Assembly (NCBI GenBank): GCA_016700375.1
Contig: CP065016.1
Location: forward strand, 180,001-212,000
Length of the DNA stretch: 32,000 nucleotides
Direction: 5' to 3'
From: Candidatus Saccharimonadota bacterium
GTDB taxonomy: Bacteria; Patescibacteriota; Saccharimonadia; Saccharimonadales; UBA4665
Below the pieces are notes generated by a model. That model made no database searches and was not told the origin of the DNA. It saw only the letters and a program-made list of their open reading frames with translations. Made by a program: the position numbers and the translations under genes. Positions 15,369 through 30,727 of the stretch are shown one piece after another (position 1 is the first letter of the stretch; each line of letters begins with the position of its first letter).

Positions 15369-15373
15369 AGCAT

Positions 15374-16477: not shown

Positions 16478-16523
16478 TTAATGTGATGTTTCTCACATCT
16501 CAGCAGTTTCTCATGAAAATTAC

Positions 16524-16598: not shown

Positions 16599-19500
16599 CA
16601 ACCATGCACGTACTTCGGTATTTTCGCCCAACAAACCAAAATGAAGTGAAAGCACGGTTTCGAACACCTCTCTCTACCCGCATAATAGCGGCTTTCTTCT
16701 GTCTGTCATTTGTAACGAGTACCTTTATTTCGACAGCGCCAGTCTCTGCCCTATTTGGTATAGGAAGCGATAAAAAACCACGACCGCTCGCTGTTGCAGA
16801 GCAGGGATATATTGACCCGAGCGGAGCCACCGGCCAGGGCACAACTCTTGGCGGCCCAGAGCCGGGCAAACTGCAACAAAAACAGCCACGCAAAGAAGTA
16901 GTTTCCAAACGAACCGCAAGCACCAAGACGTTTGATAACGGAGACGGCACAGCCGAGGTACGCAACTACATGGGCCGGGGGCACTACAAAAGCGGCAACA
17001 ATTGGAAGGACATAGACACCTCCTTGGTGGTAGACACCAACGCGGCAGACAGCTCGAACATACTTGGCGAGGCGCTTTCTTGGGTAAAAGGTAAAACCCA
17101 AGACCTGTCCACGTACAAGGTTGCGGGAAATGACTGGCAAGCCCGGTTTGCCCCCAGTGATGATGCCGTTGGTATGGTGCGTATAGAGGCGGACGGCGTG
17201 AAACTCGTCCTCAGTCCCATGGCTGCCACCCCGGGGGTCACACCCACCATCAAGACTATGCCTGATGGTACCGAAACGGTAACGTACATAAACCTTTGGC
17301 CCGAGACAGACGTTATATACACCGTAAAGAATGACATGCTTAAAGAAGACATTCTGGTCAAAAGCCGCAGCGCCGCGACGAGCTACCGTTTTAAGGTGGC
17401 AGGAGCAAAACTTACCGTTACAAGCGATGGCAGTGTAGCAATCGGGAAAACTAAGCAGACGCTTTCTGCGCTTACTATGGCAACCAGCGCAAGGGGTGTT
17501 ATAGAAAATAGCGGTGTAAAACAATCGGTAAACGGCGACATGTTGACAATATCTTTCGATAAATCTTGGATGAAGTCGCTGAAAGCTAATGATTTTCCCC
17601 TTATAATCGACCCTAGCTGGGGAAGGGGTACCTCAACAGTCAGTTGGAATTACTATGCATACAAGTCGGACGGCACGATTTGCTATTCAAACTCGTGCTT
17701 TATGAATGCAGGCTACCTCTATGACAGAGGCTGGAAGGGCTGGCGAAGTGCGTTTAGGATCGACTTTAATGTTTTGCAGGGCAAACAACTGCTTGATGCG
17801 TACATGCATCTCCACAAATCGCAAAGGAGCTTCTGGACAGGCACAACCGAAGGGCTCTATACCGAGCTTTCACATGCTAACTGTTTAAGCTACAACTGTA
17901 TAGATTATGGTTCTCCAAGGCATAGCGCATGGTTTGGCACCGATGGAGATATAAACTTCACTGCCCTAATGCAAAGTAGAATGAATATTGGCGACTGGGG
18001 TGCTTGGTTCATGCTTAACGGGGAAGAACGTGCCTATACAACGTACAAAGGCTGGGATGCAGACAACTCATATTTTGTGCTCAGCTATAACAGTGGCCCA
18101 GGAATGACGACACCGGTAAGTCCTGCAGACAAACAGGTTGTCGTCACCGACCAACCGCTATTGCAAGTTAACGCCGTCGGTGACCCCGATGGCGATGCGC
18201 CGCAGTACTACTACCGAATCGCAACGAATCCAGATGCCGAAACAGGCAGCGTCATCAACTCTGGTTGGTTACCTGGGCAAACCAGCTTCACCATTCCGGA
18301 AGGAAGGTTACAAGATGGCGTGACGTACTACTGGCACGTCTACACTTGGGACGGCTTTTGGCAAACCAACCCAAACTGGGTGCGCTCGTTCAAATACGAT
18401 GCTCGTCTCGGCAATGATAATACCTCAACACTTGATGATGGCGGGCCGGTAGACGTTAACCTTGCGACCGGTAATGTCACAACCAGCACCGGTTCTCATA
18501 CAACCAGCGCGCTAGGCGGCAGTATCGGCCTCAGCATGACATACAATTCCCCGTACCGGGCAAAATCTGGCTTGTGGTCAACGTACTACAACAATATGTC
18601 ATTCAGCGGCAACCCTGTACTGCAACGGCTTGAAAATGGTTTTAATTTTCCCTGGGGTACTTCTTCGCCCGCGCCGGGTGTAGTGAGCGCAGACGGCTTT
18701 AGTGCAAGATACGCTGGCTACTTTATCGCTCCAAAAACAGCATCCTATGCGTTTGGCTTTACTGCAGACGACAACTACTCTCTGTACCTAAACAATGAAA
18801 CAACCCCAGCCACAACTTCTGGTTGTTGTGCGCAGGGAAATTGGACGATGACTCCCCGTACGTTCACTGAGGGACAAGTTGTCCCATTCCGTTTGGATTA
18901 TTCTGAAGCAGGAGGACCCGGATATCTTCATTACGCCGTGCGGATAGACGGCGTCGAGCAGCAGATCCAACCGCAGTGGATGAAAACAGACCCGCGGCCG
19001 CTCCAAATTTCGAACGGGCTATCTGGCAAATACTACTATGACTCTGGCAGCCACAACTTCCCGAATGATGAATTCAGCTCTTTCCTGCAACGCCGTGAAA
19101 CAAATATGTATTTCAACTGGGGAGAGGGCTCTCCGTTGGCATATGGTCCCACAAATCAGTTCATGGCAAGGTATAGTGGTTTCTTCACGGCACCGGTCGC
19201 TGGCTCATATTATTTTGGTTCAGCGGGTGATGATGGAACACGAATTTTTATCCGTGGCGAAAACACCCCATATCAAAATGACTGGTCCGATCATGGTTGG
19301 CGATTGTCCTATGGTGGAGAAGTACGATTAGAAAAGGGGCAAAGTATCCCAATTACGGCTGATTATTATGAAAATGGTGGCGGGGCCGCTTTTGGATTGT
19401 ACGTAAAAGGAGCGGTTGCCGAGCAAATCATCCCAGCAGCCTGGCTCAGCACAAAGGTAAATCCGCTACCAGAGGGGTGGCAGCTGAGTGTCGATGCCGA

Positions 19501-22500
19501 TGGAGATTTAGCATACGACTATGCTTCTATACAGGCGCAAAGTGTCATTCTGTACGATAGCGAGGGCGACCAGCATGAGTATAAATGGACAGGTAGCAGC
19601 TACGCACCAGCTGCGAATGAGTATGGCGTGCTGACGCGCAATGCCGACGGCACTCTCACGCTTATAGACGCAGACGGCAAGACGTACACGTTTGACAGCG
19701 GTGGGCGCATAACTTCTGTTACGACACCTACCGACGACCGCAAACCGGCGGCGCTGAAATACCGCTATGGCACCTCACATGACCCGGTACAAAACCGCTA
19801 CATAACCCGTTTACTGGAAATAACAGATGGAGTGGACGCAAACCGCTGGGGTAAACTGTTCTATTCTGGCGACACGCAGTGTGGCGCTACCCCGAGCGGC
19901 TATCAGGAGGCACCCGCGAACATGCTCTGCGCCTTCGAAACAAACGATGGCAGGCGCACCGTATTTGCGTACCTAAACGGCCAATTAGCCCGCGTTATTG
20001 CAAACGGCGGAGAAACGGCTACATATGGATACTCAGACTCGTGTGCCCCGAGAGGCCTCAGCTGCGTAATGATGAGCAGCCAGCAGACACCACTCGCCTA
20101 CGACGCCATTAGTGCAGGTGTTCGCGCAGATAACCCAAGCGTAAATAGTGAACTATCTTACGACATCATCGGCCGTGCTCAGGACATCACACTACCGGCC
20201 CCCACCGAAAATGCGTTTCGCGCAAAACATCAGTACAAGTACTTGAACAGCGCTACGCAGACGAAAGAAGTGGGCGAAACTGAACCTATGGGTTATAGCC
20301 AGCGCGTGGAATACGATAGTCTCTACAGAACAACAAAAGCCTACGATAAAACCGGGAAATCCACCATACAGGAGTGGGATGCCGTAAAGGATCTTTTGTA
20401 CAGTGCTACCGATGCAACTGGGCTTAAATCTACCACCATCTACGACCCGAACGACATGCCCGTGGAGTCCTATGGCCCCGCACCAAGCACGTGGTTTGGC
20501 GCAGATAGAAAGCCAACCGCTGCATATCTTTCTCAGGTACCGAGAACTGCTACATCATACGATGAAGGCATGAGTGGGCTGGCAGTGACACTCTATAAAC
20601 CCAAAACGCTTACGGGAGCACCTGTGCTGCACGCTACTCGGTTTAACAATACCCCGTATGCTTCGTTTGGATTTTCTCCAACTGAAGGACCTACCACTCC
20701 ACGCACAAGTGAATATAGCTACACCGCAACTGGAAAAATTCGTATGCAGTATGCTGGAACATACAGCTTTAGAATATGGCATGACGATGGCGTACGCCTG
20801 TATATAGACGACAAGCTCGTCATTAACGATTGGGTAGACGGGGCAGACCGTTATTCTGCTGGCACATTTGTAAATAGTGCTGATAGCTACAAACGCATTC
20901 GCATTGAGTCTTATCATGTTGACAATGGCGCACCCCAAACCATGATTACCCAGCTCTTCTTGGCTACGCCGGGAGGAAGCGAAACCGCAGACGTATCGCC
21001 ATATCTAAAACCCGACTACGGCCTTCAGACGAGTCAGACGGTATATGGGGCTCCTACTGCGACCGGGCAGACTGCGACGCTTACCAGCCGAACCAACTAT
21101 GGCAACAACCCAGAACTTGGGTTAGTAAAGTCGGTCACAACCGATGCCGACGGCCCCCTGAAGCTCGCGGCAACAAGCAATTACGAAGACCTCGCAACCC
21201 TTACCAGCCCAGACAAGTATCTTCGGCAAACAAATAGTAGCCTGCCTGGTGGCGCAACGACCCGGTACGAATACTATGACACCATCAAAAAAGATGCCCA
21301 AGGAAATTACCTGAAAGATGCGGCCGGAAATTGGGCAGCAGCCGACCCCCTTCCGAACCCGTGCGACACTACCAAATCTTACCGCCAGGGCGGCATGCTG
21401 CGGTTAAAGACCGAACCCGACCCAGACGGCAGCGGACCGCAGACTGGCCGGACGGTTGAAACGGTTTACGACGATGCCGGGAAGGTGGTAGCTACCCGCT
21501 ACAATCAAGACGATTGGACGTGCACCACCTACGACACCCGCGAGCGGGTACTCACTACAACCGTACCAGCGTACAACGGTAAACCCGCCAGAACTATCGT
21601 GAATGACTATGCCGTCGGCGGAAACCCGCTCATCACTGGCAGCGGCGACGGCTCCGGTAACATCACTATAGAAACTGACCTGCTCGGCCGAAACGTGAAA
21701 TACACCGATGCAAAAGGCAATGTCACCACCAGCAGCTACGATACCAAGGGTAGGCTGACGCAACGTGTCAGCAAACTCGGCACCGAAGACTACCTGTACG
21801 ACGACTACGACAGGCTAACGGCACAAAAGCTCGACGGAGCCACCTTTGCGAGCATCGCGTACGACGAATTTAGTCGTGTCACGAGCGTGCAATACCCAGC
21901 CGGTCAACGGCTTGACCTTACTCGCGAGAGCACTTCCGCTGGCCTTGGTCGGCTCGTTAAACGCACCTACAACCTTGCCAACGACACGACACTCAGCGAT
22001 GAAGTGAGCCGTGCGGTTACCGGCGATGTGGTGAGTGGCACCGAACTGGGTCAGCCCAAATCCTACAGCTACGACACCGCCGGCAGGCTCGTGGCAGCTA
22101 CCGTAGCTGGCAATACCTTTACTTATGGTTATGGCTCCCAAGACGCAAGCTGCGCCGGTAAACCTGGTGTTGCCACAGACCTATCCCTGGCTGGCAAAGA
22201 TTCAAACAGGACGAGTCAAACGGTCAATGGCGTGAACACTACCTACTGCTACGACCAAGCAGACAGGCTGGTAGCCAGCAGCAATGCTCTCTATGACACT
22301 CCCGAGTACGACAGCCATGGCAATACCACTCGCCTTGGTTCTGGCGACACCACCACCAACTTCACCTACGACAGTAGCGACCGCAACACTGGCATCACCG
22401 AAACGAATGCCTCCGGGAGCATCACCACCACCTACGGACGTGATGTTCAGGGCAGGTTACTTTACCGACATCAGGACACCAACGGAACGAATGTAAGTAA

Positions 22501-23440
22501 TGACTACTACGGCTATACTGCCTCCGGTGACTCCCCGGATTTCATTACAGATGTAAGTGGCACTGTCACACAGAAGTATCTATCGCTTCCTGGAGGGGTT
22601 AAAGTAACCATTCGTCCAGACAGAGCCAGTGCAGGTGCTCTAACATACAGCCTACCCAATATACACGGTGATGTATTTGCGACTATCGATGCAGACGGCA
22701 AGATACTCGGTACTTACCAAACCGGTCCATTTGGAGAGAAGCTACCAAACCAAACCACTCCCTGGAACACCCTAAACGGTGGTACAATGGGATATGTCGG
22801 TGCAGCCCTAAAGCTCACTGAAGCACAGTTAGCACTTCAGCCTATTCAAATGGGAGCGAGGGTATACATACCAGGACTCGGTAGATTCCTTTCCGTTGAC
22901 CCGGTTCAAGGTGGCACACCAAATAACTATGTGTATCCGGGTGACCCGGTGAATAACCACGACCTAACTGGTACGTTAGCTCCACTTGTTGTTGCACTCG
23001 CACCGTTTGTAGGAAGGGTGGCCGTTGGTGCAGCCGTAAAGATGGCTACAAGCTACGGCGGCAAGAAAGTAGCCCAGCAAGCGGTAACGAAAAGCGTAGC
23101 GAAGAGTGCGACGAAAACGATTACAAATCATGTAGAAAAATCACCCGTAAAGCAGGCGCAAATCGTTAAGAACGCCCAGCAAGGAAGGGCAGCAGAGCAG
23201 CAGGTTAGAAACCAATTGGCAGCTAAATATGGCGAGAAAAATGTAATCAATAAGCCGTATTATAAAACAGAAGCAGGAAGGAGATACCCAGATTTTCAAA
23301 TATTACAGAATAACTCCCCTGTCTTCAATGTAGAAGTAAAGAGTGGTAATGCGATTTATGGAGGAAGCCAATTATATAAAGATGGACTTATATTTGAGGA
23401 AACTGGTATACCAACGTTCCTGATTAGGGTGCCGTCATGA
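16592..23440 (+). CDS. full-length Rhs/YD-repeat polymorphic toxin (signal peptide, beta-rich N-region, 3x PA14, YD shell, Rhs core, nuclease-like C-terminal toxin)
   Basis: 2,282-aa uninterrupted ORF. The likelier start is the ATG at 16604, given the SD. It carries many YD-type repeats (YDxxGR/YxYDxxxRL). The Rhs-associated core ends in MGARVYIPGLGRFLSVDPVQGGTPNNYVYPGDPVNNHDLTG. The C-terminal tip is variable. Confidence 0.95.
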   Translation: MEATMHVLRYFRPTNQNEVKARFRTPLSTRIIAAFFCLSFVTSTFISTAPVSALFGIGSDKKPRPLAVAEQGYIDPSGATGQGTTLGGPEPGKLQQKQPRKEVVSKRTASTKTFDNGDGTAEVRNYMGRGHYKSGNNWKDIDTSLVVDTNAADSSNILGEALSWVKGKTQDLSTYKVAGNDWQARFAPSDDAVGMVRIEADGVKLVLSPMAATPGVTPTIKTMPDGTETVTYINLWPETDVIYTVKNDMLKEDILVKSRSAATSYRFKVAGAKLTVTSDGSVAIGKTKQTLSALTMATSARGVIENSGVKQSVNGDMLTISFDKSWMKSLKANDFPLIIDPSWGRGTSTVSWNYYAYKSDGTICYSNSCFMNAGYLYDRGWKGWRSAFRIDFNVLQGKQLLDAYMHLHKSQRSFWTGTTEGLYTELSHANCLSYNCIDYGSPRHSAWFGTDGDINFTALMQSRMNIGDWGAWFMLNGEERAYTTYKGWDADNSYFVLSYNSGPGMTTPVSPADKQVVVTDQPLLQVNAVGDPDGDAPQYYYRIATNPDAETGSVINSGWLPGQTSFTIPEGRLQDGVTYYWHVYTWDGFWQTNPNWVRSFKYDARLGNDNTSTLDDGGPVDVNLATGNVTTSTGSHTTSALGGSIGLSMTYNSPYRAKSGLWSTYYNNMSFSGNPVLQRLENGFNFPWGTSSPAPGVVSADGFSARYAGYFIAPKTASYAFGFTADDNYSLYLNNETTPATTSGCCAQGNWTMTPRTFTEGQVVPFRLDYSEAGGPGYLHYAVRIDGVEQQIQPQWMKTDPRPLQISNGLSGKYYYDSGSHNFPNDEFSSFLQRRETNMYFNWGEGSPLAYGPTNQFMARYSGFFTAPVAGSYYFGSAGDDGTRIFIRGENTPYQNDWSDHGWRLSYGGEVRLEKGQSIPITADYYENGGGAAFGLYVKGAVAEQIIPAAWLSTKVNPLPEGWQLSVDADGDLAYDYASIQAQSVILYDSEGDQHEYKWTGSSYAPAANEYGVLTRNADGTLTLIDADGKTYTFDSGGRITSVTTPTDDRKPAALKYRYGTSHDPVQNRYITRLLEITDGVDANRWGKLFYSGDTQCGATPSGYQEAPANMLCAFETNDGRRTVFAYLNGQLARVIANGGETATYGYSDSCAPRGLSCVMMSSQQTPLAYDAISAGVRADNPSVNSELSYDIIGRAQDITLPAPTENAFRAKHQYKYLNSATQTKEVGETEPMGYSQRVEYDSLYRTTKAYDKTGKSTIQEWDAVKDLLYSATDATGLKSTTIYDPNDMPVESYGPAPSTWFGADRKPTAAYLSQVPRTATSYDEGMSGLAVTLYKPKTLTGAPVLHATRFNNTPYASFGFSPTEGPTTPRTSEYSYTATGKIRMQYAGTYSFRIWHDDGVRLYIDDKLVINDWVDGADRYSAGTFVNSADSYKRIRIESYHVDNGAPQTMITQLFLATPGGSETADVSPYLKPDYGLQTSQTVYGAPTATGQTATLTSRTNYGNNPELGLVKSVTTDADGPLKLAATSNYEDLATLTSPDKYLRQTNSSLPGGATTRYEYYDTIKKDAQGNYLKDAAGNWAAADPLPNPCDTTKSYRQGGMLRLKTEPDPDGSGPQTGRTVETVYDDAGKVVATRYNQDDWTCTTYDTRERVLTTTVPAYNGKPARTIVNDYAVGGNPLITGSGDGSGNITIETDLLGRNVKYTDAKGNVTTSSYDTKGRLTQRVSKLGTEDYLYDDYDRLTAQKLDGATFASIAYDEFSRVTSVQYPAGQRLDLTRESTSAGLGRLVKRTYNLANDTTLSDEVSRAVTGDVVSGTELGQPKSYSYDTAGRLVAATVAGNTFTYGYGSQDASCAGKPGVATDLSLAGKDSNRTSQTVNGVNTTYCYDQADRLVASSNALYDTPEYDSHGNTTRLGSGDTTTNFTYDSSDRNTGITETNASGSITTTYGRDVQGRLLYRHQDTNGTNVSNDYYGYTASGDSPDFITDVSGTVTQKYLSLPGGVKVTIRPDRASAGALTYSLPNIHGDVFATIDADGKILGTYQTGPFGEKLPNQTTPWNTLNGGTMGYVGAALKLTEAQLALQPIQMGARVYIPGLGRFLSVDPVQGGTPNNYVYPGDPVNNHDLTGTLAPLVVALAPFVGRVAVGAAVKMATSYGGKKVAQQAVTKSVAKSATKTITNHVEKSPVKQAQIVKNAQQGRAAEQQVRNQLAAKYGEKNVINKPYYKTEAGRRYPDFQILQNNSPVFNVEVKSGNAIYGGSQLYKDGLIFEETGIPTFLIRVPS
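16604..16750 (+). other. Sec-type signal peptide / N-terminal anchor of the Rhs protein
   Basis: A long basic n-region (MHVLRYFRPTNQNEVKARFRTPLSTR) is followed by a hydrophobic core (IIAAFFCLSFVTSTFISTAPVSA) with an A-x-A-like end (VSA|LF). Confidence 0.6.
18566..18984 (+). other. PA14 domain 1 of Rhs protein
   Basis: GLWSTYYNNMSFSGNPV...FNFPWG...DGFSARYAGYFIAPKTASYAFGFTADDNYSLYLNNE. This is the classic PA14 signature (GLxxxYY..., F-S-x-R-x-x-G-x-F, DD..xLxL). Confidence 0.7.
19013..19450 (+). other. PA14 domain 2 of Rhs protein
   Basis: GLSGKYYYDSG...MYFNWGEGSP...NQFMARYSGFFTAPVAGSYYFGSAGDDGTRIFIRGE...YYENGGGAAFGLYV. Confidence 0.75.
19540..22972 (+). other. YD-repeat shell plus Rhs-associated core, ending at the DPVNNHDLTG motif (22943-22972)
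   Basis: Repeats include LYDSEGDQHEYKW, DADGKTYTFDSGGRITSV, YDSLYRTTKAYDKTGKST, YDDAGKVVATRY, YTDAKGNVTTSSYDTKGRLTQ, YSYDTAGRLVAAT, YCYDQADRLVAS and FTYDSSDRNTGI. The core signature is R-V-Y-x-P-x-L-G-R-F-L-S-V-D-P. Confidence 0.85.
20567..20965 (+). other. PA14 domain 3 of Rhs protein
   Basis: GLAVTLYKPKTLTGAPV...YSYTATGKIRMQYAGTYSFRIWHDDGVRLYIDDKLVINDW...IRIESYH. It is inserted within the YD-repeat region. Confidence 0.65.
22056..23116 (+). repeat. direct repeat copy A (main rhs 3' core + post-core linker)
   Basis: It pairs with 26203-27263 at a constant offset of 4,147 nt. I count 17 mismatches by manual comparison, with an uninterrupted identical run at 22091-22608. Confidence 0.9.
23117..23437 (+). 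other. C-terminal toxin tip 1: PD-(D/E)xK (restriction-endonuclease-fold)-like nuclease
   Basis: Motif order is GRAAEQQV (E), RRYPDFQIL (PD), FNVEVKSGNA (ExK), GGSQLYKD (Q). This is the first segment unique to the main gene after the region it shares with orphan 2. Confidence 0.6.
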
Positions 23441-23970
23441 AAGCGAATGAATTCTATAATTCCGTCAAAAAATTTGATGTTGTATTTTTAGAAAACGGGT
23501 TTAAGAAGATAAGGCGAAACCAGTACATAAAACCTGGTTTTAAACTGCATGTAGTGCTAGATAGGTGGGGTTGGGAGAAAAAAAGAGGATGGGGCTTTTT
23601 TATCAGAGTTACCGACAATCGCTACGAAGGGCTGTATAGTAGCCATGATTATGCGCACGGCTGCCTCGACATTAATGCGTACTCACTTATAGAACGGCAG
23701 ATACTTAATAGAGAACAATTATATGACATATATGATCATTTGGAGTCACTTGAATCATTGAAGAATGATTACTGGATAACTTTTTACGACACCGAAGAGC
23801 TTGTCAAAGTCTTAGATTTGTTACTCATGCCTGTACTCGAAAATATAGAGTCATGGATAAAATATCAAAAGAAGAAACCGCTAATAACGAATTCATTAAA
23901 GAATAAAGCCAAGAGAAATGAACTTTTAGATGATCTGAAACAAATATTTCCTGATGCAAACATCTCTTAG
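23437..23970 (+). CDS. putative cognate immunity protein 1
   Basis: 177 aa. Its ATG overlaps the rhs stop (ATGA). It is strongly AT-rich relative to the rhs core. The position is typical of polymorphic-toxin immunity genes. No family is confidently recognised; the N-terminus GFKKIRRNQYIKP...F is DUF4304-like by impression only. Confidence 0.7.
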   Translation: MKANEFYNSVKKFDVVFLENGFKKIRRNQYIKPGFKLHVVLDRWGWEKKRGWGFFIRVTDNRYEGLYSSHDYAHGCLDINAYSLIERQILNREQLYDIYDHLESLESLKNDYWITFYDTEELVKVLDLLLMPVLENIESWIKYQKKKPLITNSLKNKAKRNELLDDLKQIFPDANIS

Positions 23971-24675
23971 AGCTAGTCAGACACCACCGGCATGCCGGTG
24001 GCTTGCTGAGTGGGGTCGCCTAAAAGGCGATCGTTGCCCCGCAGTATTAGTTTGATTAGTTAGAAGGCTCCTTGAGCCGATGATGCTGTGTCATCGATCT
24101 CCTGCTCTCTGATGTACTTTCTGATGGCCTGCTCTTCAAATCCAACGCTTGAAACAGCATAGCCCCGGGCCCAGAAATGTTCACCCGTGAAATTTCTGGT
24201 CTTACCGCCGAACTCTCTGGCAATGGCAATAGCGCTTTTGCCCTTCATGAAGCCAATCACTTCAGAGATTTTGTACTTTGGTGGTATCTCCATGAGCATG
24301 TGAACATGATCGGACATGAGATGGCCTTCCAGAATCTTGCATTCTTTTTGGTTAGCCAGCTCGTGAAATATTCTACCCAACCGTGGGCGTATCTCACCGT
24401 AGAGAGCTTTCCTTCTCCCTTTCGGGATGAAGACAATATGGTACTTCAAATCCCATTTTGAATGAGATAAGCTATGGTAGTCTAACGATGTAGACATAGA
24501 TGGTTTCCTTTCAGCGGGGCAACCAATCGCAAGAAGAGCACCCGAAACCTAAACGGTTCCGGGTGCTCTTATTTTCTGGGTTACTACTGGGAAGGTCAAA
24601 CCTTTGCGAGTCACACTAGTAGAACTAGTGGTTTACCTTATGGGGTAATTAGCAACTCTATCTTACGAGGGTCCT
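23971..24675 (-). mobile_element. IS200/IS605-family insertion sequence (IS200 type, tnpA only)
   Basis: The ~705-bp interval between the immunity-1 stop and the first junction element is filled by one Y1-transposase gene plus structured ends. These are an 18-nt perfect palindrome (23984-24001), an 11-bp-stem hairpin (24534-24570) followed by a T-rich run, and the hairpin cactagt-aga-actagtg (24614-24630). The size matches ~0.7-kb IS200 elements. Exact ends are not determinable here. Confidence 0.65.
24060..24497 (-). CDS. tnpA: IS200/IS605 family Y1 (HUH) transposase TnpA
   Basis: 145 aa: SKWDLKYHIVFIPKGRRKALYG..., HUH motif SDHVHMLMEIPPKYKIS, catalytic Tyr context FWARGYAVSSVG. It closely resembles the classical IS200 TnpA layout. 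No tnpB is present. Confidence 0.9.
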   Translation of the reverse strand: MSTSLDYHSLSHSKWDLKYHIVFIPKGRRKALYGEIRPRLGRIFHELANQKECKILEGHLMSDHVHMLMEIPPKYKISEVIGFMKGKSAIAIAREFGGKTRNFTGEHFWARGYAVSSVGFEEQAIRKYIREQEIDDTASSAQGAF

Positions 24676-24764
24676 ACGTGGTTTATCCTCGTGCAGATAA
24701 CAACGATGTGAACTCCCACTTTGACTATCGTATTTGCTACACTAAACCTGTTGCACCTTTAATC
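24676..24764 (+). repeat. junction/leader element copy J1 (parts A+B)
   Basis: acgtggtttatcct (part A) and gatgtgaactcccactttgactatcgtatttgctacactaaacc (part B) recur at 30418-30431 and 30564-30607. Part B also recurs at 26042-26068. Confidence 0.75.
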
Positions 24765-25700
24765 GACTACTACGGCTACACTGCCTCCGGTGACTCCCCA
24801 GATTTCATTACAGACATATCCGGAAACGTCACCGAGAAGTACCTGACCCTGCCAGGTGATGTCCTGGTCACCATCCGACCCTCTCGCCAAAGTGCCGGAG
24901 CACTTACCTATAGTCTACCCAACATCCATGGAGATATCTTTGCGACAGTTGATGCCGATGGAAAGATACTTGGCACCTACCAAACGGGACCATTTGGAGA
25001 GAAACTACCCATAGCACAAACAGGCCAGGTAGCAGGCCAGACAACTACTCAGTGGAATACCCTGAATGGTGCCAGCTTTGCATATGTCGGCCAACATGAG
25101 AAACTAAATGAAGTAGCACTAGCTACGGCACCTGTACAAATGGGCGCTAGAGTGTACATCCCTGGGCTTGGACGGTTCCTGTCTGTTGACCCTATGCCCG
25201 GCGGAACACCTAATTTATATGCTTATACGTCTGATCCAGTAAATGAATTTGATTTAGACGGTAATTGGCCGAGCTTCAAGTCAGTAGTAAAATGGACCAC
25301 ACGTATCGCGGTAGTAGCATCGTTTGTGCCTGGTCCGATTGGAATGATTGGAAGCGGAGTAGCCGCTGCTGGATATGCCTATCAGGGACAAAAAGGAAAA
25401 GCCGCTGCTGCACTAGTTGGCTTCATACCAGGAGGAAAACTAATCTCTAAGGTAGCATCCAAGAGTGGAATGGCGTCAAAGTTAATGACGAAAGTTCTCA
25501 CTGCTCAGGCAAAAGCGAAGGGAATAGGTACAAATAGTAAGCTATTCGGTACACACGGACAGGGGATACTTAATAGTGGCAGATATAGAATAGGGTGGTC
25601 AAAAGATCAGAGCTTTGTAGCATGGCGCATAGGTCAACCAGGTAAACACAATCATTTTATGAATCTTAGAACTAGCATAAAATGGAGAGGTTATAGATGA
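24678..25700 (+). CDS. orphan Rhs C-terminal cassette 1 (core fragment + unrecognised toxin tip)
   Basis: 340-aa ORF with a GTG start of uncertain reality. From 24765 it parallels the main gene (DYYGYTASGDSPDFITD...YSLPNIHGD...GPFGEKL...MGARVYIPGLGRFLSVDP...DPVNEFDLDG, motif at 25233-25262). A unique tip follows. Confidence 0.8.
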   Translation: MVYPRADNNDVNSHFDYRICYTKPVAPLIDYYGYTASGDSPDFITDISGNVTEKYLTLPGDVLVTIRPSRQSAGALTYSLPNIHGDIFATVDADGKILGTYQTGPFGEKLPIAQTGQVAGQTTTQWNTLNGASFAYVGQHEKLNEVALATAPVQMGARVYIPGLGRFLSVDPMPGGTPNLYAYTSDPVNEFDLDGNWPSFKSVVKWTTRIAVVASFVPGPIGMIGSGVAAAGYAYQGQKGKAAAALVGFIPGGKLISKVASKSGMASKLMTKVLTAQAKAKGIGTNSKLFGTHGQGILNSGRYRIGWSKDQSFVAWRIGQPGKHNHFMNLRTSIKWRGYR

Positions 25701-26041
25701 ACCCGATTGACATTATGTACAAATACGCACTAGGGGTGTTTGGTGAAAAACGAGTCCAGCGGACAAAGAATGAACTAGGAGCAATTGACATATACATCCA
25801 CCCCAATATTTCAACAGTTATGACGAACTGTTACCACCCAAGACTAGTACATATCTCCAGTGATGGTGAGTATTACTGGATGTCAATAGATGATTTCCAG
25901 TGGGAGTTTGACGATAATACACAGAATTTTCTTAAAACAACACCAGCCTACCTTGATGCAGTAAAAGATAATACTCTTTACGTTTCAGCTGTGAACATTG
26001 GGAAATTTAAGCTATTTAAAAAATTGGAGATTAAGCTCTAG
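25697..26041 (+). CDS. putative immunity protein for orphan cassette 1
   Basis: 114 aa. It has an ATGA overlap with the upstream toxin ORF, is AT-rich and acidic, and matches no recognised family. Confidence 0.65.
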   Translation: MNPIDIMYKYALGVFGEKRVQRTKNELGAIDIYIHPNISTVMTNCYHPRLVHISSDGEYYWMSIDDFQWEFDDNTQNFLKTTPAYLDAVKDNTLYVSAVNIGKFKLFKKLEIKL

Positions 26042-26192
26042 TTTCACCGCGTTTTGCTACACTTAAACGATAAGTATCTACGCCGCAGCGACCCCACTAA
26101 AAGCTATGCACTTAAGTCGTCCCGAAGGGAAGCTTGATGCCTATGCTCGGTATAAGTCACTGACCATAGATAGGGCGAGGAAAAGAACCAAA
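26042..26192 (+). repeat. junction/leader element copy J2 (partial B + part C)
   Basis: tttcaccgcgttttgctacacttaaac aligns with part B. A 64-nt spacer then precedes cctatgctcggtataagtcactg (26140-26162), which is identical to 30678-30700. Confidence 0.75.
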
Positions 26193-27584
26193 CTCGGCCA
26201 GGCCAAATCCTACAGCTACGATACCGCCGGCAGGCTTGTGGCAGCTACCGTAGCTGGCAATACCTTTACTTATGGTTATGGCTCCCAAGACGCAAGCTGC
26301 GCCGGTAAACCTGGTGTTGCCACAGACCTATCCCTGGCTGGCAAAGATTCAAACAGGACGAGTCAAACGGTCAATGGCGTGAACACTACCTACTGCTACG
26401 ACCAAGCAGACAGGCTGGTAGCCAGCAGCAATGCTCTCTATGACACTCCCGAGTACGACAGCCATGGCAATACCACTCGCCTTGGTTCTGGCGACACCAC
26501 CACCAACTTCACCTACGACAGTAGCGACCGCAACACTGGCATCACCGAAACGAATGCCTCCGGGAGCATCACCACCACCTACGGACGTGATGTTCAGGGC
26601 AGGTTACTTTACCGACATCAGGACACCAACGGAACGAATGTAAGTAATGACTACTACGGCTATACTGCCTCCGGTGACTCCCCGGATTTCATTACAGATG
26701 TAAGTGGCACTGTCACACAGAAGTATCTATCGCTTCCTGGAGGGGTTAAAGTAACTATTCGTCCAGACAGAGCCAGTGCAGGTGCTCTAACATACAGCCT
26801 ACCCAATATACACGGTGATGTATTTGCGACTATCGATGCAGACGGCAAGATACTCGGTACTTACCAAACCGGTCCATTTGGAGAGAAGCTACCAAACCAA
26901 ACCACTCCCTGGAACACCCTAAACGGTGGTACAATGGGATATGTCGGTGCAGCCCTAAAGCTCACTGAAGCACAATTAGCACTTCAGCCCATACAAATGG
27001 GAGCGAGGGTATACATACCAGGACTCGGAAGATTCCTTTCCGTTGACCCAGTACAAGGTGGTACACCAAATAACTATGTGTATCCAGGTGACCCGGTGAA
27101 CAACTATGACCTAACTGGCACATTAGCTCCACTTGTTGTTGCACTCGCACCGTTTGTAGGAAGAGTGGCCGTTGGTGCAGCCGTAAAGATGGCTACAAGC
27201 TACGGCGGCAAGAAAGTAGCCCAGCAAGCGGTAACGAAAAGCGTAGCGAAGAGTGCGACGAAAGCAACAGTTAGACAGGAAGCGAAGGCATCAATACCCC
27301 AAGGCACAAAGCAGGGACTGTACAGTTTCAATGAAAATGGAAGGCAGTACATTGGTAAATCTGTCAACGTACCGAATAGGATTAACACTCATATAGCAAC
27401 CGGAAAGTACCAAGGCGGTGAATTGACAGTAAAGCCCATGCCAGGGGCTACAAACTTGCAGCTTCGTGTTGGCGAACAAACATGGATTAATCGATGTGGG
27501 GGCATCTGTGGCGGTGACCTAAGTAACAAAATTAACTCTGTGAGACCAGAACTTTGGGACCCACTTAGTATTCCTGGCCCGTAA
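26106..27584 (+). CDS. orphan Rhs C-terminal cassette 2 (long core fragment + GIY-YIG-like nuclease tip)
   Basis: 492-aa ORF. Positions 26203-27263 are ~98% identical to 22056-23116 of the main gene. The unique tip (27264-27581) reads GLYSFNENGRQYIGKSVNVPNRINTHI...RVGEQTWIN, matching the GIY...YIG...R...H...E...N order of GIY-YIG nucleases. Confidence 0.85.
   Translation: MHLSRPEGKLDAYARYKSLTIDRARKRTKLGQAKSYSYDTAGRLVAATVAGNTFTYGYGSQDASCAGKPGVATDLSLAGKDSNRTSQTVNGVNTTYCYDQADRLVASSNALYDTPEYDSHGNTTRLGSGDTTTNFTYDSSDRNTGITETNASGSITTTYGRDVQGRLLYRHQDTNGTNVSNDYYGYTASGDSPDFITDVSGTVTQKYLSLPGGVKVTIRPDRASAGALTYSLPNIHGDVFATIDADGKILGTYQTGPFGEKLPNQTTPWNTLNGGTMGYVGAALKLTEAQLALQPIQMGARVYIPGLGRFLSVDPVQGGTPNNYVYPGDPVNNYDLTGTLAPLVVALAPFVGRVAVGAAVKMATSYGGKKVAQQAVTKSVAKSATKATVRQEAKASIPQGTKQGLYSFNENGRQYIGKSVNVPNRINTHIATGKYQGGELTVKPMPGATNLQLRVGEQTWINRCGGICGGDLSNKINSVRPELWDPLSIPGP
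26203..27263 (+). repeat. direct repeat copy B (orphan 2)
   Basis: See copy A. The duplicated alternative-frame ORFs 22284..22496/26431..26643 and 22513..22701/26660..26848 in the ORF track confirm the 4,147-nt offset. Confidence 0.9.
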
Positions 27585-27596
27585 CTGGAGAAAAGA

Positions 27597-27935
27597 ATGG
27601 ATTGGATTTTAAGCTACCCTGAAAAGACGACACGTCAATTATTAAGAGACATATATGATGCTAACCCTTCGGGTTTTGGGAGGGCTAGAGAAATAACCTT
27701 TGTCTTGACGCATATAAAAGACCAAGATGTTGAAATTCTACTCAACGAGCTACACGAAAAAAACTGGGCGACATCGTACTTAAAAAAGACGCCCCATCAT
27801 AGCTCGACAGTGGAATGTCTCCGACGAAACTATGTGCTGGACAACCTCCAGCTCCAGCTTGATGAGAAATATTTTAGTATGCTTGCAAACAAATACGAAA
27901 TAACGTTCGATGGTTGGTTTACCGAGATTGTTTAG
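27597..27935 (+). CDS. putative immunity protein for orphan cassette 2
   Basis: 112 aa. A GGAG-containing 12-nt gap follows the toxin stop. It is AT-rich, and its position is consistent with an immunity gene. Confidence 0.65.
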   Translation: MDWILSYPEKTTRQLLRDIYDANPSGFGRAREITFVLTHIKDQDVEILLNELHEKNWATSYLKKTPHHSSTVECLRRNYVLDNLQLQLDEKYFSMLANKYEITFDGWFTEIV

Positions 27936-28861
27936 CGCTAACGCTGAAAGCCTCAGGCGCAGTCTACTCCATAAAGAACTTCCACGGCGACACCGCGCTC
28001 ACCGTCAACGCGGCCGGTGTCCCGACCAGTTCCGTGCACCTTTACGACCCATTTGGGCAGACAGCACCGAGTGCAGCTTTTGGCACCGGCGGCTACGGTG
28101 GTTCTCCCAAAGACCCCAGCAATAGCTCAAACGAAGCAATGGCCTGGGCAGCTCACCCAAGCCGGAAGGCAGAAGCCAGCGACCTCTTTACCATACCCAT
28201 CATTCAAATGGGAGCAAGAGTATACCTACCAACCCTTGGCAGATTCCTACAGGTAGACCCCATAGAAGGTGGTACAGCCAATGCGTATGTGTATGCACTC
28301 GACCCGATTAATCAGAGTGATTATAGCGGTATGTTCGTATTCGCAATTGCTGCAGCGGTACCATTCATCGCTGCCGCCGCAGTTGTTGCGGCAACAGCGG
28401 TAATAAGTAGTCCTAGCGCTGTAAGAGCAAGACAGGGGGCTGCAAAAAGCATTGCGAATGCAGTAGACAATACATGGAATAAAATCGGAGCATCACTAAA
28501 ATCGCAAGCTCAACCAAAGGCAATAACAAACCCAGTCGCTCCCCCAAAACAATGCAACACGTACACTCTGGCGCCTCCACCTTATGCAGGTGTAAAGTAT
28601 CCTTCTGCAAGTGCCTCGAACTATGCACAAAAACAAGCGGCTATTACGAGTACTCAATCCCTTCTTGCAATCGGGATTAGTCCGGGAGGTTTTCCGATTA
28701 TGGGCAGTGGTCAACCAAAACGTCTTGACAACCCCCTTTACGCAAATGGTTGGACAAAATATAGTGTGCCCTATCCGGCTAATGACTTTGAAGTGCACTA
28801 CAACCTTAATACTATTACATGCCAGTACGCTGATTTAAAGACAAAGGAAGGGCTATACTAA
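27914..28861 (+). CDS. orphan Rhs C-terminal cassette 3 (divergent core lineage + unrecognised toxin tip)
   Basis: 315-aa ORF. The TTG start lies inside the upstream immunity gene and is probably not real. Rhs-core similarity starts right after the immunity stop at ~27936 (NFHGDTALTV...YDPFGQ...IIQMGARVYLPTLGRFLQVDPIEGGTANAYVYALDPINQSDYSG). The tip spans 28331-28858. Confidence 0.75.
   Translation: MVYRDCLALTLKASGAVYSIKNFHGDTALTVNAAGVPTSSVHLYDPFGQTAPSAAFGTGGYGGSPKDPSNSSNEAMAWAAHPSRKAEASDLFTIPIIQMGARVYLPTLGRFLQVDPIEGGTANAYVYALDPINQSDYSGMFVFAIAAAVPFIAAAAVVAATAVISSPSAVRARQGAAKSIANAVDNTWNKIGASLKSQAQPKAITNPVAPPKQCNTYTLAPPPYAGVKYPSASASNYAQKQAAITSTQSLLAIGISPGGFPIMGSGQPKRLDNPLYANGWTKYSVPYPANDFEVHYNLNTITCQYADLKTKEGLY
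28271..28329 (+). repeat. 59-nt core-end repeat, copy 1
   Basis: ggtacagccaatgcgtatgtgtatgcactcgacccgattaatcagagtgattatagcgg matches 29306-29364 with 2 mismatches. Confidence 0.85.
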
Positions 28862-28866
28862 CAGAT

Positions 28867-29274
28867 ATGCTATTACTCACGAACAAAGATATCGTCGACT
28901 ATGGACCGATACTTCGCTTAAAGCGGGGAACCCTGTGCATATCTTTTGCCGAAAGTCATGATGCGGAAGAAGGAAGTAGAGTAGCAGTATTACCGCTAGA
29001 ATTTAACTATGAAAATGAAGATATTGACCCAATATTTTTCGCTATGGAGAATTTTGATATTGTCGCTGACTTTACCTCAGAAAAATGGATTACAAAAAAG
29101 GTTGAGAATAATACGCACACCGAGATTTCTTCATTTCTCGAATGGTTTAATGGCGGCTTCTGGTATCGCGCACATGACTGGAGCTTAAATGGGGAAGACT
29201 ACAGAACTATTAGAACATATTTCGAAGAATACAAATCGGTCTATTCTGCATGGCTCGAAAGCATAGAAAAGTAA
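28867..29274 (+). CDS. putative immunity protein for orphan cassette 3
   Basis: 135 aa, 5 nt after the toxin stop. It is AT-rich and acidic, with no recognised family. Confidence 0.65.
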   Translation: MLLLTNKDIVDYGPILRLKRGTLCISFAESHDAEEGSRVAVLPLEFNYENEDIDPIFFAMENFDIVADFTSEKWITKKVENNTHTEISSFLEWFNGGFWYRAHDWSLNGEDYRTIRTYFEEYKSVYSAWLESIEK

Positions 29275-29305
29275 ATACCCAAATCTAAATTGACCCATAA
29301 AAGTC

Positions 29306-29364
29306 GGTACAGCCAATGCCTATGTGTATGCGCTCGACCCGATTAATCAGAGTGATTATAGCGG
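29306..29364 (+). repeat. 59-nt core-end repeat, copy 2
   Basis: It encodes GTANAYVYALDPINQSDYSG, the only Rhs-core remnant of cassette 4. Confidence 0.85.
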
Positions 29365-29956
29365 GCAGGGACTGTTTGGATTCCTGACAGCAGCAGTGGC
29401 AATCGTAAAGTATGCGGTCACAAACTACTCATCAAACAAATACGTGGCAGCAGCAACAAAAATTATTGCACCAGTGGTAAATGCGGTGAAGAGTATTGTT
29501 GCAGCAGCGCCAGCAGCCCAAGTCAGTGCAAAAACAGCCCCACCAGCAGTTAAACAGATTAATAGCATCTATCCAAAAGAAAGACTTGATTTCGGAAAGC
29601 TGAAACCAGAAAATAGGATTGGTGCGAATCCTTCGGCCCCCGTCTCATATCAAACAACACAAGTATCGGCAACTTTTTGCTTTGTATTCTGCGGGGATGT
29701 TGGACTGTCATCGGACGGCAGCGGCATACACCTTACGATTGGATATTCTCTCGGGCAAAGGTATGGAATATCCGCTGGTGTTGGAGGAGGACCTGGTAGG
29801 GTTGATACTGGTGGGCATGCTAACATTTCTTGCTCCGCTGGATTACTAGGAGGCGAGTTTAGCTCAGATGGTCTAAATAGCAACAGCTTTTCAGCTATGT
29901 TTAATTTTGTGCCTACTCAAGCAGGTTGTAGCTCAGGGCCAAGTGTGACCTTTTAA
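29324..29956 (+). CDS. orphan Rhs cassette 4 (14-residue core remnant + Gly-rich unrecognised toxin tip)
   Basis: 210-aa ORF with a fortuitous GTG start. The sequence runs YALDPINQSDYSG, then a hydrophobic helix (GLFGFLTAAVAIVKYAV), an Ala/Pro-rich linker, and a Gly/Ser-rich C-terminal half (GYSLGQRYGISAGVGGGPGRVDTGGHANISCSAGLLGGEF). Confidence 0.7.
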   Translation: MYALDPINQSDYSGQGLFGFLTAAVAIVKYAVTNYSSNKYVAAATKIIAPVVNAVKSIVAAAPAAQVSAKTAPPAVKQINSIYPKERLDFGKLKPENRIGANPSAPVSYQTTQVSATFCFVFCGDVGLSSDGSGIHLTIGYSLGQRYGISAGVGGGPGRVDTGGHANISCSAGLLGGEFSSDGLNSNSFSAMFNFVPTQAGCSSGPSVTF

Positions 29957-29977
29957 ATATACACAAACGGAGGTGTT

Positions 29978-30433
29978 ATGAGTAAAGAGTTAAAGTTTAC
30001 CGGTTCAGGAGTGAATGCACCAAGTATAAAAGTTTCCCTCGCTCGCGCAAGTGAGTCACCGTCAAAATCATCGTTCACCGTAGGTGCTACTTGGCCGTTC
30101 GTTACATTAACATTGGGGAAAAAACGTGTAGAGTTTCGAATGCCAGGTGTTATCAAATTTGCAACAGCAACTGACAGTAAAATAACGTTAAGCAAGCTAG
30201 GCTACCTTTTCTTCCGCTCTGCTGACCCAAATAACGATTTCGGCTTTTCCACCTTAGCTTTAAATAGACTAATAGTAGGGTTAAAAGCAATGGGCTTTGA
30301 ACTTGACAGCACATGTATAACTAATCTAAAGATCGCTAGATTGTTCCATGTCATATTTTTGTCTTTTGGCTTACTCTTCCTAGCCTGTGTATTCGCGGTG
30401 ATGTTTGCAACAGGTACACGTGGTTTATCCTAG
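29978..30433 (+). CDS. putative immunity protein for cassette 4, C-terminally membrane anchored
   Basis: 151 aa. A good SD (aacGGAGGtgttATG) is present. There is a C-terminal hydrophobic helix (LFHVIFLSFGLLFLACVFAVMFA). Its last codons run into junction part A. Confidence 0.7.
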   Translation: MSKELKFTGSGVNAPSIKVSLARASESPSKSSFTVGATWPFVTLTLGKKRVEFRMPGVIKFATATDSKITLSKLGYLFFRSADPNNDFGFSTLALNRLIVGLKAMGFELDSTCITNLKIARLFHVIFLSFGLLFLACVFAVMFATGTRGLS

Positions 30434-30727
30434 TACAGAGAGCGCTGGTGTGAATCTGACCCACGCGCACTTTTTCCCAAATAATGGGATTTGAGGGATT
30501 TGAGGATTTGAGGACTGTCCTCTAGCAGGAGGATTTGAGGACTGTCCTCTAGCAGCTAGCGGCAATGTGAATTCCCCATTTCACTATCATTTTTGCTACA
30601 CTAAACCATAACCATGTACACCGCCGCGGCCGCATTTCAGCCTTTGCAATCCACTCGCTCTTCTCGCAATTTCGCTTCCTATGCTCGGTATAAGTCACTG
30701 GCAATTGGCCGAACAAGACAGAGAGGT
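30418..30727 (+). repeat. junction/leader element copy J5 (A + inserted repeats + B + C)
   Basis: This is the most complete copy: A at 30418-30431, B at 30564-30607, and C core cctatgctcggtataagtcactg at 30678-30700. About 132 nt lie between A and B, where copy J1 has 15 nt. Confidence 0.75.
30487..30555 (+). repeat. short tandem/direct repeats inside J5
   Basis: ggatttgag occurs three times in tandem (30487-30512). The 24-nt unit gatttgaggactgtcctctagcag then occurs twice (30505-30528 and 30532-30555). Each unit contains the mini-hairpin gagga-ctg-tcctc. Confidence 0.8.

Follow-up and report, generated by a model that had tools for sequence, protein, structure and literature searches.

A large Rhs/YD-repeat polymorphic toxin gene in the chromosome of a Candidatus Saccharimonadota (Saccharibacteria) bacterium ends in a stretch of about 1 kb that is found again, almost unchanged, in a 5'-truncated gene fragment downstream. 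The question raised by this locus is whether the pair of repeats is a substrate on which the C-terminal toxin tip of the protein can be exchanged, or the remnant of an exchange that has already taken place. The window analyzed is a stretch of 32,000 nt (GenBank assembly GCA_016700375.1, contig CP065016.1, positions 180,001 to 212,000 of the forward strand), and all positions given below are those of the window unless another contig is named. An earlier, sequence-only reading of this DNA had described the repeat as a ready-made substrate for toxin switching. It is considered probable that the locus is a main/orphan Rhs array in which the repeat, made up of the 3' end of the Rhs shell and a linker, is a recombination substrate for swapping tips. 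This interpretation is supported as a statement of potential and as an account of how the locus evolved, and reading the repeat as the trace of the most recent displacement is no less apt than reading it as a primed switch. The proposed toxin-switching substrate stood as a potential, with tips exchanged between strains, and no sign of a programmed or high-frequency switch was found. The features on which the argument rests are as follows (ORF, open reading frame).

16592-23440, plus strand: main Rhs/YD-repeat polymorphic toxin gene, 2,282 aa (IPP75_01050 by tag order)
22056-23116, plus strand: repeat copy A, the last ~305 residues of the Rhs shell and a 48-aa linker, with weaker homology from 22040
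22973-23116, plus strand: shared post-core linker TLAPLVVALAPFVGRVAVGAAVKMATSYGGKKVAQQAVTKSVAKSATK, 48 aa, a hydrophobic helix (mean Kyte-Doolittle 1.9) followed by a Lys-rich stretch
23117-23440, plus strand: tip 1, attached to the main gene, 107 aa, putative PD-(D/E)xK nuclease
23437-23970, plus strand: putative immunity gene 1, 177 aa (QQS69716.1 / IPP75_01055), start overlapping the rhs stop (ATGA), called by position
26106-27584, plus strand: orphan 2 ORF, 492 aa (QQS69719.1 / IPP75_01075), with an unrelated leader of 32 residues
26203-27263, plus strand: repeat copy B, core stub and linker of orphan 2
27264-27584, plus strand: tip 2, 106 aa, GIY-YIG nuclease-type toxin domain
27597-27935, plus strand: putative immunity gene 2, 112 aa (QQS69720.1 / IPP75_01080), RraB-like, with a GGAG motif 5' of the ATG

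The repeat pair and the predicted exchange

Positions 22056-23116 and 26203-27263 align without gaps at a fixed offset of 4,147 nt, with 17 mismatches (98.4% identity) and a longest mismatch-free stretch of 518 nt (22091-22608). The offset, the number of mismatches and the identical run given in the sequence-only reading were all reproduced exactly. In main-gene numbering, the mismatches were located at 22075, 22090, 22609, 22828, 22843, 22846, 22882, 22903, 22906, 22915, 22939, 22954, 22958, 22960, 22972, 22975, and 23017. A 1-kb repeat at 98% identity is far beyond chance. Using blastn, the homology extended slightly further to the left (22040-23116 against 26187-27263, 98.05% over 1,077 nt, no gaps), and an independent repeat search recovered the same pair together with a weaker third copy at 30728-31391. 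Outside the repeat (left of ~22040 and right of ~23116-23120) identity was at the random level of ~25-40%, and to the right of 23116 and 27263 the tips are unrelated and the downstream ORFs different.

The codon phase is equal in both copies, and 16 of the 17 mismatches are synonymous and lie at third codon positions, the sole residue change within 22056-23116 being H2123Y. Both copies are therefore real coding sequence that diverged while being translated. The mismatches are unevenly spread: the first 35 nt hold two and the following 737 nt one, 14 fall within 190 nt (22828-23017), and the final 99 nt are free of them. In a test that assumed uniform placement, a clean run of at least 518 nt had a probability of ~1.5e-4 and the cluster of 14 mismatches in 190 nt a probability of <2e-5. 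Over 22056-22827 the main and orphan-2 copies differ at 3 of 772 nt (0.4%), whereas orphan-2 orthologues of other strains differ by 2-4%; the pair is thus either very young or has been kept similar by conversion.

Orphan 2 has the make-up of an orphan module, namely a truncated, near-identical core without the N-terminal and export region, a distinct tip, and its own downstream ORF. It had been claimed that recombination between the copies would replace tip 1 and its immunity gene in frame by tip 2 and its immunity gene, and the geometry held. When a crossover was placed in silico at each of five points in the repeat, the product was in every case one open ORF of 2,281 aa consisting of the main body, the linker, and tip 2, with immunity gene 2 starting 12 nt after the ORF and the GGAG motif upstream of it. 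Because the linker is shared, the chimera would differ from the present protein only in the tip and in at most one or two shell residues. The unit removed in silico was 4,147 bp and contained tip 1, immunity gene 1, the IS200 insertion, cassette 1 with its immunity gene, and the orphan-2 leader, which matches the predicted loss of immunity 1, IS200, and cassette 1 as one segment. The alternatives offered alongside, a circle or a duplication, have been published for Rhs (PMC3967940, PMC2935791).

The two tips had been labelled GIY-YIG-like and PD-(D/E)xK-like, and the first of these labels was borne out at the family level. Tip 2 alone matched PF01541 at 1.4e-3 and 19.3 bits, under the cut-off of 22.6. 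An exhaustive HMMER search with tip 2 returned 111 relatives, every match being at the extreme C-terminus and three belonging to full-length PA14x3-Rhs proteins of 2,311-2,345 aa. The GIY-YIG profile was matched by 17 of 20 members of the tip-2 family at E<=0.01 (best 2.2e-7), and the tip of P0028 passed the curated GIY-YIG threshold (26.2 vs 22.6 bits). The invariant columns of the 20-sequence alignment (G18, Y20, Y29, G31, R39, H43, E71, Q72, N88, and N91) fit the catalytic pattern GxY ... YxG ... R ... H/Y ... E ... N, and the best sequence matches in the PDB were GIY-YIG proteins (UPF0213, the UvrC N-terminus, I-TevI, and SLX1; weak, E 0.006-0.2). The identification of tip 2 as a GIY-YIG nuclease is thus supported at the family level by profiles and conserved residues. 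Immunity gene 2 matched PF06877 at 4.4e-5 (24.4 bits vs a cut-off of 23.3).

The PD-(D/E)xK label of tip 1 is plausible but unproven. It is suggested by the motif AAEQQ...YPDF...VEVK (E...YPDF...VEVK) and by two sub-threshold Pfam matches, to DUF4143 (1.6e-3, 18.6 bits, cut-off 28.1) and HSDR_N (0.02, 15.2 bits, cut-off 25.1). A phmmer search of tip 1 against the PDB gave nothing significant, a word-indexed homologue search gave no matches, and a BLASTP comparison with the Tox-REase-7 tip of P0004 was not significant. The single-sequence AlphaFold2 model had a mean confidence (pLDDT) of 37 and was unusable for fold comparison. No family was matched by immunity gene 1 in a profile search. Every tip is followed by a small ORF, which either overlaps the stop (ATGA) or lies at a spacing of 12 nt. 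From family membership, the protein would be expected to be exported and autocleaved, the tips to be toxic, and the ORFs that follow them to protect.

The orphan array and tip exchange between strains

Five 5'-truncated core stubs lie 3' of the main gene, each with a different tip and a small ORF; orphans 1 to 5 start at 24678, 26106, 27914/27935, 29294/29324, and 30728/30880, respectively. The elements of the array other than orphan 2 itself are listed here.

23976-24645, minus strand: IS200 insertion, ~670 bp, with TnpA at 24060-24497, between immunity gene 1 and orphan 1
24678-26041, plus strand: orphan cassette 1, a 340-aa ORF and a 114-aa putative immunity gene (25697-26041)
26042-26202, plus strand: orphan-2 leader, with the motif TTTGCTACACTTAAAC at 26053-26068, an ATG at 26106, and the leader peptide ..DAYARYKSLTIDRARKR.. 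in frame with the core stub
27935-29274, plus strand: orphan cassette 3, with a Y-type core stub (27935-28329), tip 3, and putative immunity gene 3 (28867-29274)
29294-30433, plus strand: orphan cassette 4, with a 71-nt core-end repeat (29294-29364), tip 4, and putative immunity gene 4 (29978-30433)
30545-32000, plus strand: orphan cassette 5, with a leader (30545-30727, motif at 30592-30607), an X'-type core stub (30728-31391), and a tip extending to 31842
31832-32000, plus strand: Imm33-like immunity gene for tip 5 (PF24719), running off the window

A comparison of strains for alternative expressed tips had been proposed in the sequence-only reading, and such a tip was found at the same chromosomal locus of a sister strain. 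This strain is represented by the Logan contig L031 (SRR21121621, with partial copies in four sibling runs), in which the flanking upstream genes are 95% identical in nucleotide sequence to the window and the histidine kinase protein is identical. The Rhs protein of L031 (3016-9957, 2,313 aa) is 90-99% identical to that of the window over residues 1-1480 and 34-54% identical after ~1500, and the gene ends in a Tox-REase-9 tip followed by a different immunity gene. The body is thus conserved and the tips are unrelated. The 3' core of L031 (8968-9362) matches the orphan-3 stub of the window (27935-28329) at 89.6% and not the main gene of the window. Strains thus differ in the expressed tip, and orphan 3 is what remains of a gene end like that of L031. 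The divergence of L031 from the window begins at nt ~21034, and the G+C content is 56% in 21001-22000 compared with ~50% elsewhere; the drop in identity after ~1480 and the rise in G+C indicate that the main gene is a mosaic with an earlier, deeper replaced 3' block of ~2.4 kb.

Exchange at the core end was also seen in L036 (JGI), which carries a Y-type core that is collinear with L031 for 584 nt but ends in tip 4 of the window. With tip 3 on orphan 3 of the window and the Tox-REase-9 tip of L031, three different tips are therefore found on one core-end type. Both L001 and L036 are without 28330-29364 of the window, a segment of 1,035 bp that holds tip 3, immunity gene 3, and one 71-nt repeat. 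The indel is bounded exactly by the direct core-end repeats of 71 nt (compare L001 1615-1685 and L036 513-583), of which 29294-29364 is 93% identical to 28259-28329, and in both strains the orphan-3/Y-type core joins tip 4 in frame. It is a small-scale replica of the architecture formed by the 1,061-nt repeat and the 4,147-bp unit.

Tip 1 was also found away from a main gene. In L028 (ENA), an orphan that follows cassette 5 holds tip 1 and the start of immunity gene 1 (95.8%), and its homology begins only at 22757. Collinearity between L036 and L028 (95.7%) holds up to the last linker codon, beyond which L036 has another tip. Among the 14 right-hand marker sites, those at 22828-22906 have main-like bases in the orphan-2 orthologues L001 and L002, and the tip-1 orphan of L028 carries orphan-2-like bases at 22843, 22846, 22882, 22915, and 22958. 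This mosaic marker pattern is consistent with what would be expected of repeated conversion among copies. The break-points that separate strains lie at the core end and at the linker end, within coding homology.

Further substrates for recombination in the array are poorer. The main gene and orphan 5 share 665 nt at 87.5% with a longest identical run of 161 nt, and orphans 3 and 4 share the 71 nt at 93%. A repeat search found no inverted repeats of at least 40 nt within 15000-32000.

Main protein, linker and leaders

The main protein consists of an N-terminal hydrophobic segment, three PA14 domains, a YD-repeat shell, the Rhs-associated core, the linker, and tip 1. The hydrophobic segment is signal- or anchor-like (aa 31-49, mean Kyte-Doolittle 1.9), and the gene product is presumably exported. 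Profile matches were obtained to PA14 (5e-43) and to PF05593 RHS_repeat (2.8e-8, 34.4 bits vs a cut-off of 22), and TEN_YD-shell/RHS matches were obtained on homologues of the protein. The Rhs-associated core was recognized by TIGR03696 (41.9 bits vs a cut-off of 32.5) at aa 2046-2127, corresponding to nt 22727-22972 within repeat copy A; it ends in ..GDPVNNHDLTG, which fits the DPxG-type motif that bounds the variable tip. The same profile was matched in orphans 1, 2, 3, and 5. No PAAR, VgrG, type VI secretion system (T6SS), or LXG/WXG domains were detected in the main protein, and no genes of a T6SS or type VII secretion system (T7SS) were found in the 16 kb upstream of the main gene, so that neither the PAAR/VgrG-binding N-terminus nor the T6SS neighbours of a T6SS-delivered Rhs effector are present. 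These 16 kb are ordinary chromosomal DNA encoding LigA, a D-Ala-D-Ala carboxypeptidase-like protein, an Xaa-Pro aminopeptidase, a solute-binding protein, an FAD oxidase, tRNAs, and the histidine kinase. Saccharibacteria have an envelope of the Gram-positive type.

Three tRNA genes were located 5' of the toxin locus with Rfam at the gathering threshold (11417-11497, minus strand; 13748-13829 and 13844-13917, plus strand), two of which lie directly 5' of the AAA-kinase/YgjP/histidine-kinase block that precedes the rhs gene. The closest full-length homologues of the main protein among GTDB representative genomes belong to Saccharibacteria/Saccharimonadales (45-57% identity). Homologues of the PA14/Rhs C-terminal region that are 33-48% identical (P0134, P0212, and P0215) are annotated in the Actinomycetota Arcanobacterium, Nocardia, and Alloactinosynnema. 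Actinomycetota are the host phylum of cultivated Saccharibacteria, and these matches could stem from genes passed between the lineages of epibiont and host or from epibiont DNA within host assemblies.

The right edge of the 1,061-nt repeat coincides with the end of the linker, whose counterpart in orphan 2 is 27120-27263. Among public proteins, including P0003, the 48-residue linker was found nearly unchanged ahead of at least four tips (tip 1, tip 2, the P0001/P0002 type, and the Tox-REase-7 tip of P0004), and its end is a recurrent break-point where tips diverge. Orphans 1, 3, 4, and 5 each have their own, different hydrophobic segment at the linker position. The linker may be a translocation or entry module that is released with the toxin.

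The core stub of orphan 1 has ~68% nucleotide identity to the main gene (TIGR03696, 45.8 bits) and is followed by its own tip, and tip 5 is HNH/NinG-like (NinG 4.9e-5). The core stub of orphan 5 is the one that is 87.5% identical to the main gene. Compared with the intact 406-aa orthologue in L036 (1805-3025), orphan 5 has lost 1 nt near 30740 and gained an insertion of 9 nt, and the ORF of its leader (30614-30976) is out of frame with that of the stub (30880-31842); because the deletion puts the leader out of frame, orphan 5 is decaying as an independent ORF. In L028 and L036, another cassette of X-type stub, linker, and tip follows the Imm33-like gene, and the array therefore probably continues past the window. 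No extra X-type core stubs were found within 10 kb downstream in the three closest GTDB genomes (L004-L006). The IS200 TnpA matched Y1_Tnp at 5e-38 and NF033573 at 4.8e-41. The insertion, of the IS200/IS605 family, is polymorphic, since the Logan contig L029 (SRR34065935) joins 23975 to 24646 and shows the empty site GAGCTA/ATTAGC.

A conserved leader of ~60-180 nt precedes orphans 1, 2, and 5 (24686-24748, 26046-26165, and 30545-30727), with counterparts at L030 1254-1363, L036 1750-1918, and L029 1090-1152. The leader motif TTTGCTACACTWAAAC was matched three times against 0.07 expected and resembles an extended -10 element (TGnTAnAnT). The leaders of orphans 2 and 5 hold an ATG and a conserved basic peptide (..AYARYKSLTIDRxRxR..), which is in frame with the stub in orphan 2 and in the L036 orthologue of orphan 5. 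The stubs fused to leaders begin at different YD-repeat units (main-equivalent 22040 vs 22316). A generic scan for sigma-70 promoters and terminators showed no enrichment and no match at the leaders, Rfam at the gathering threshold matched only the three tRNAs elsewhere, and no exact match to the leader was found in the viral contigs of IMG/VR. The leader may be a promoter and start of the orphan or a relic of a cassette end; internal promoters exist in Salmonella rhs (PMC7043789). It is also conceivable, as a conjecture to which little weight is attached, that the leader (~120 nt, with -10-like motif, ATG, and basic peptide) marks self-expressed mobile cassettes that circulate as circles or linear DNA among competent Saccharibacteria and plug into any core end, with the linker as the entry module of nuclease tips.

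A 27-nt unit, GAGGATTTGAGGACTGTCCTCTAGCAG, is tandemly duplicated at 30490-30555, just 5' of the orphan-5 leader, and holds the palindrome GAGGAC-T-GTCCTC. The same palindrome ends contig L031 (10560-10587), 3' of the main immunity gene of that strain.

Interpretation, alternatives and precedents

According to the reading preferred here, a cassette of core end, tip, and immunity gene would recombine into the resident gene via core homology. The simplest route is a single crossover that integrates a circle, and the integration would duplicate the homologous segment and push the old tip downstream. A circle with the order leader, stub, linker, tip 1, immunity gene 1, and cassette 1 may have integrated into a gene then ending in tip 2. 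This history is suggested because the repeat flanks the 4,147-bp unit, whose terminal leader abuts the second copy. Unequal crossing-over between sister arrays would leave the same structure. A crossover within the chromosome would join the main body in frame to the GIY-YIG tip, with immunity gene 2 next to it; the 4,147 bp would be deleted or leave as a circle, and immunity gene 1 would be kept if a duplication came first. Shorter conversion tracts would homogenize or mosaicize the copies. We infer that the main gene and orphan 2 recombine in the source population.

The mechanism is known from the Rhs literature, in which C-terminal tips are displaced and silent orphan tips are recombined back, and the arrangement as such is not new. 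Jackson et al. (2009) described tips on core fragments that are excised and inserted via circular intermediates, displacing the resident tip and leaving direct repeats of the core (PMC2935791). In Salmonella, main/orphan homology of 522 bp at 95% was shown by Koskiniemi et al. (2014) to recombine experimentally, with expression of the orphan tip; the locus is duplicated before it recombines, which preserves the main immunity gene (PMC3967940). Saccharibacteria are naturally competent and genetically tractable, and integrate DNA via homology arms of ~1 kb (PMC10633639), which makes uptake of cassettes and recombination over 1 kb realistic in the phylum.

The closest likeness is to rhs-main/rhs-CT-orphan of Salmonella Typhimurium LT2, where a full-length rhs gene is likewise followed by a 5'-truncated orphan with a near-identical 3' core, a distinct tip, and its own immunity gene. 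The shared homology of 522 bp at 95% in LT2 compares with 1,061 nt at 98.4% here, running 48 residues past the core into the linker. In both loci a simple deletion would drop the main immunity gene, hence the duplication-first model. LT2 Rhs is T6SS-associated and Gram-negative, whereas no T6SS, PAAR, or VgrG was detected here and the protein has an N-terminal signal-like segment and three PA14 domains. LT2 has one downstream cassette and experimental evidence of recombination, whereas the present array has five and recombination is deduced from the sequence. WapA of B. subtilis is a wall-associated YD-repeat toxin. Proteins of this type in Gram-positive bacteria, as exemplified by S. suis WapA (PMC12704120), resemble the main protein in being large, T6SS-independent YD-repeat proteins with an N-terminal export signal, a polymorphic toxin end, and adjacent immunity. 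They differ in that the N-terminal region here carries three PA14 domains and the orphan array is larger. In contact-dependent growth inhibition (CDI), cdiA-CT/cdiI orphan arrays reportedly carry stubs of the upstream gene, and CdiA-CT is said to be bipartite, with a shared entry sub-domain followed by the toxin. The shared N-terminal sub-domain of CdiA-CT recalls the 48-aa linker, common here to at least four nuclease-type tips, although CDI delivery relies on CdiA and two-partner secretion and the present system on an Rhs shell. In enterobacterial rhs displacement (PMC2935791), as here, dissociated tips carry variable core fragments and the attached tip varies by strain; the circle model explains the repeats that flank the 4,147-bp and 1,035-bp units, and circles are hypothetical in both systems. 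The present locus differs in belonging to another phylum and another Rhs architecture, and in having two core-end types (X and Y) and the ~2.4-kb replaced 3' block. Successive replacement of effector ends by homologous recombination, with earlier immunity genes left downstream, is also known from T6SS effectors of Vibrio cholerae (PMC5361080) and from exchangeable Rhs tips of Serratia (PMC10539506). In V. cholerae, a proteobacterium with a T6SS, mostly immunity genes alone are retained, whereas earlier tips are retained here too.

Several points weigh against a substrate in current use. The junction between main gene and orphan 2 was not found in exact-protein look-ups (main Rhs and orphan 2), a JGI metagenome scan, or a search of 5.8 billion proteins, the accessible collections holding no other near-identical strain that spans the region, which makes this a gap in the data rather than a negative finding. 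The best relative in the JGI scan with the repeat-encoded peptide was 74% identical, and a homologue search with the body and the repeat returned >90% identity only to orphan 2 of the source genome itself. A simple deletion loses immunity gene 1 and would be counter-selected while siblings fire tip 1 (argument of PMC3967940). recA and other recombination genes lie outside the window, expression of the main gene is an assumption, and short-read polishing, if used, could make the interior of the repeat look more identical.

The same points bear on the reading of the repeat as a passive scar, left over from the last cassette insertion or a local duplication, that is decaying with no role in switching and with rare, counter-selected recombinants. 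The structure is the product expected of single-crossover integration (model of PMC2935791), the recombinant junction is missing from the collections searched, deletion removes immunity 1, orphan 5 is already decaying, and an IS200 has landed in the array. Against this, the difference of 0.4% over 22056-22827, compared with 2-4% among orthologues, points to a very recent origin or ongoing conversion, and the mosaic markers together with several independent tip exchanges between strains show recurrent recombination at these homologies. A scar and a substrate are not mutually exclusive, and a purely passive scar is judged unlikely. That orphan 2 has stayed near-identical because it is functional itself, as a leader-transcribed cytoplasmic stub-toxin of 492 aa with its own ATG that is neutralized by its immunity protein and forms a toxin-antitoxin-like module or drives expression of the immunity gene rather than serving as a reservoir for swaps, is given only a small chance. 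The conserved leaders with the TGnTAnAnT-like motif ahead of orphans 1, 2, and 5, the in-frame ATG and peptide of orphan 2 and of the L036 orthologue of orphan 5, and differences that look like purifying selection speak for it. Against it, promoters were neither in excess nor present at the leader in the generic sigma-70 scan, orphan 5 of the window has a broken leader ORF, and an Rhs shell fragment of 300 residues is without obvious function alone; the potential to recombine would in any case remain.

An artefact of assembly or polishing, in which one copy or the linkage of body and tip was made by the assembler or the 518-nt identity arose through short-read homogenization, is very improbable. 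Most of the mismatches do lie close to the two repeat ends, where polishing with reads anchored in the unique sequence on either side would be correct, no independent contig spans the full 1,061 nt of either copy, and the linkage of the main body to its tip rests on the source assembly alone. The source is, however, a metagenome-assembled genome in a single contig of 1,256,494 bp, implying long reads that span 1 kb, and its IPxxx locus tags probably belong to the long-read genome set from activated sludge. The pattern of 16 synonymous third-position differences among 17 is unlike that of errors. The passage from orphan 1 through its immunity gene and leader into 329 nt of the repeat was independently assembled in L030 with the orphan-specific left markers, that from the repeat through tip 2 to immunity gene 2 in L003 (100%) and L002 (98%), and that from the repeat through tip 1 to immunity gene 1 in L029; the main ORF is open across the left junction. 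Assembly duplication was rejected on the synonymous differences, the megabase contig, and the three independently assembled junctions. Programmed site-specific switching of the shufflon, integron, or antigenic variation type, with a dedicated recombinase acting on leaders or palindromes, is scarcely credible. Conserved leaders are indeed present at the 5' ends of cassettes, and the tandem 27-nt unit with the palindrome GAGGACTGTCCTC occurs 5' of orphan 5 and at the end of L031. Against it, 16592-32000 contains neither a recombinase nor an integrase ORF, the sole DNA-transaction enzyme there being the TnpA of the polymorphic IS200, all observed strain break-points lie in coding homology and none at leaders, and the search for inverted repeats over 15000-32000 was negative. 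A site-specific switch was rejected on the lack of a recombinase in the array and on the position of the break-points. A main/orphan array whose repeat is a substrate for homologous tip exchange remains the preferred explanation.

In literature searches on Rhs and polymorphic toxins in Saccharibacteria/Patescibacteria, only incidental mentions were found and no Rhs toxin array was described, and the clade appears to be new for this arrangement. Within a Candidatus Saccharibacteria genome of 1.26 Mb (candidate phyla radiation, CPR/Patescibacteria), at least 15 kb are given over to one Sec-type PA14-Rhs toxin and five spare cassettes. For annotation, the finding means that IPP75_01065, IPP75_01075, and their neighbours, deposited as hypothetical proteins, are orphan Rhs toxin-immunity modules. 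The locus is a place to test the unproven circular-intermediate model of tip displacement and the role of contact-dependent toxins in conflict between epibionts or between epibiont and host. Saccharibacteria are obligate epibionts, and by a conjecture of equally little weight as that on mobile cassettes, tip switching would retune the host or competitor range of an obligate episymbiont if PA14-Rhs toxins target the actinobacterial host or rival epibionts.

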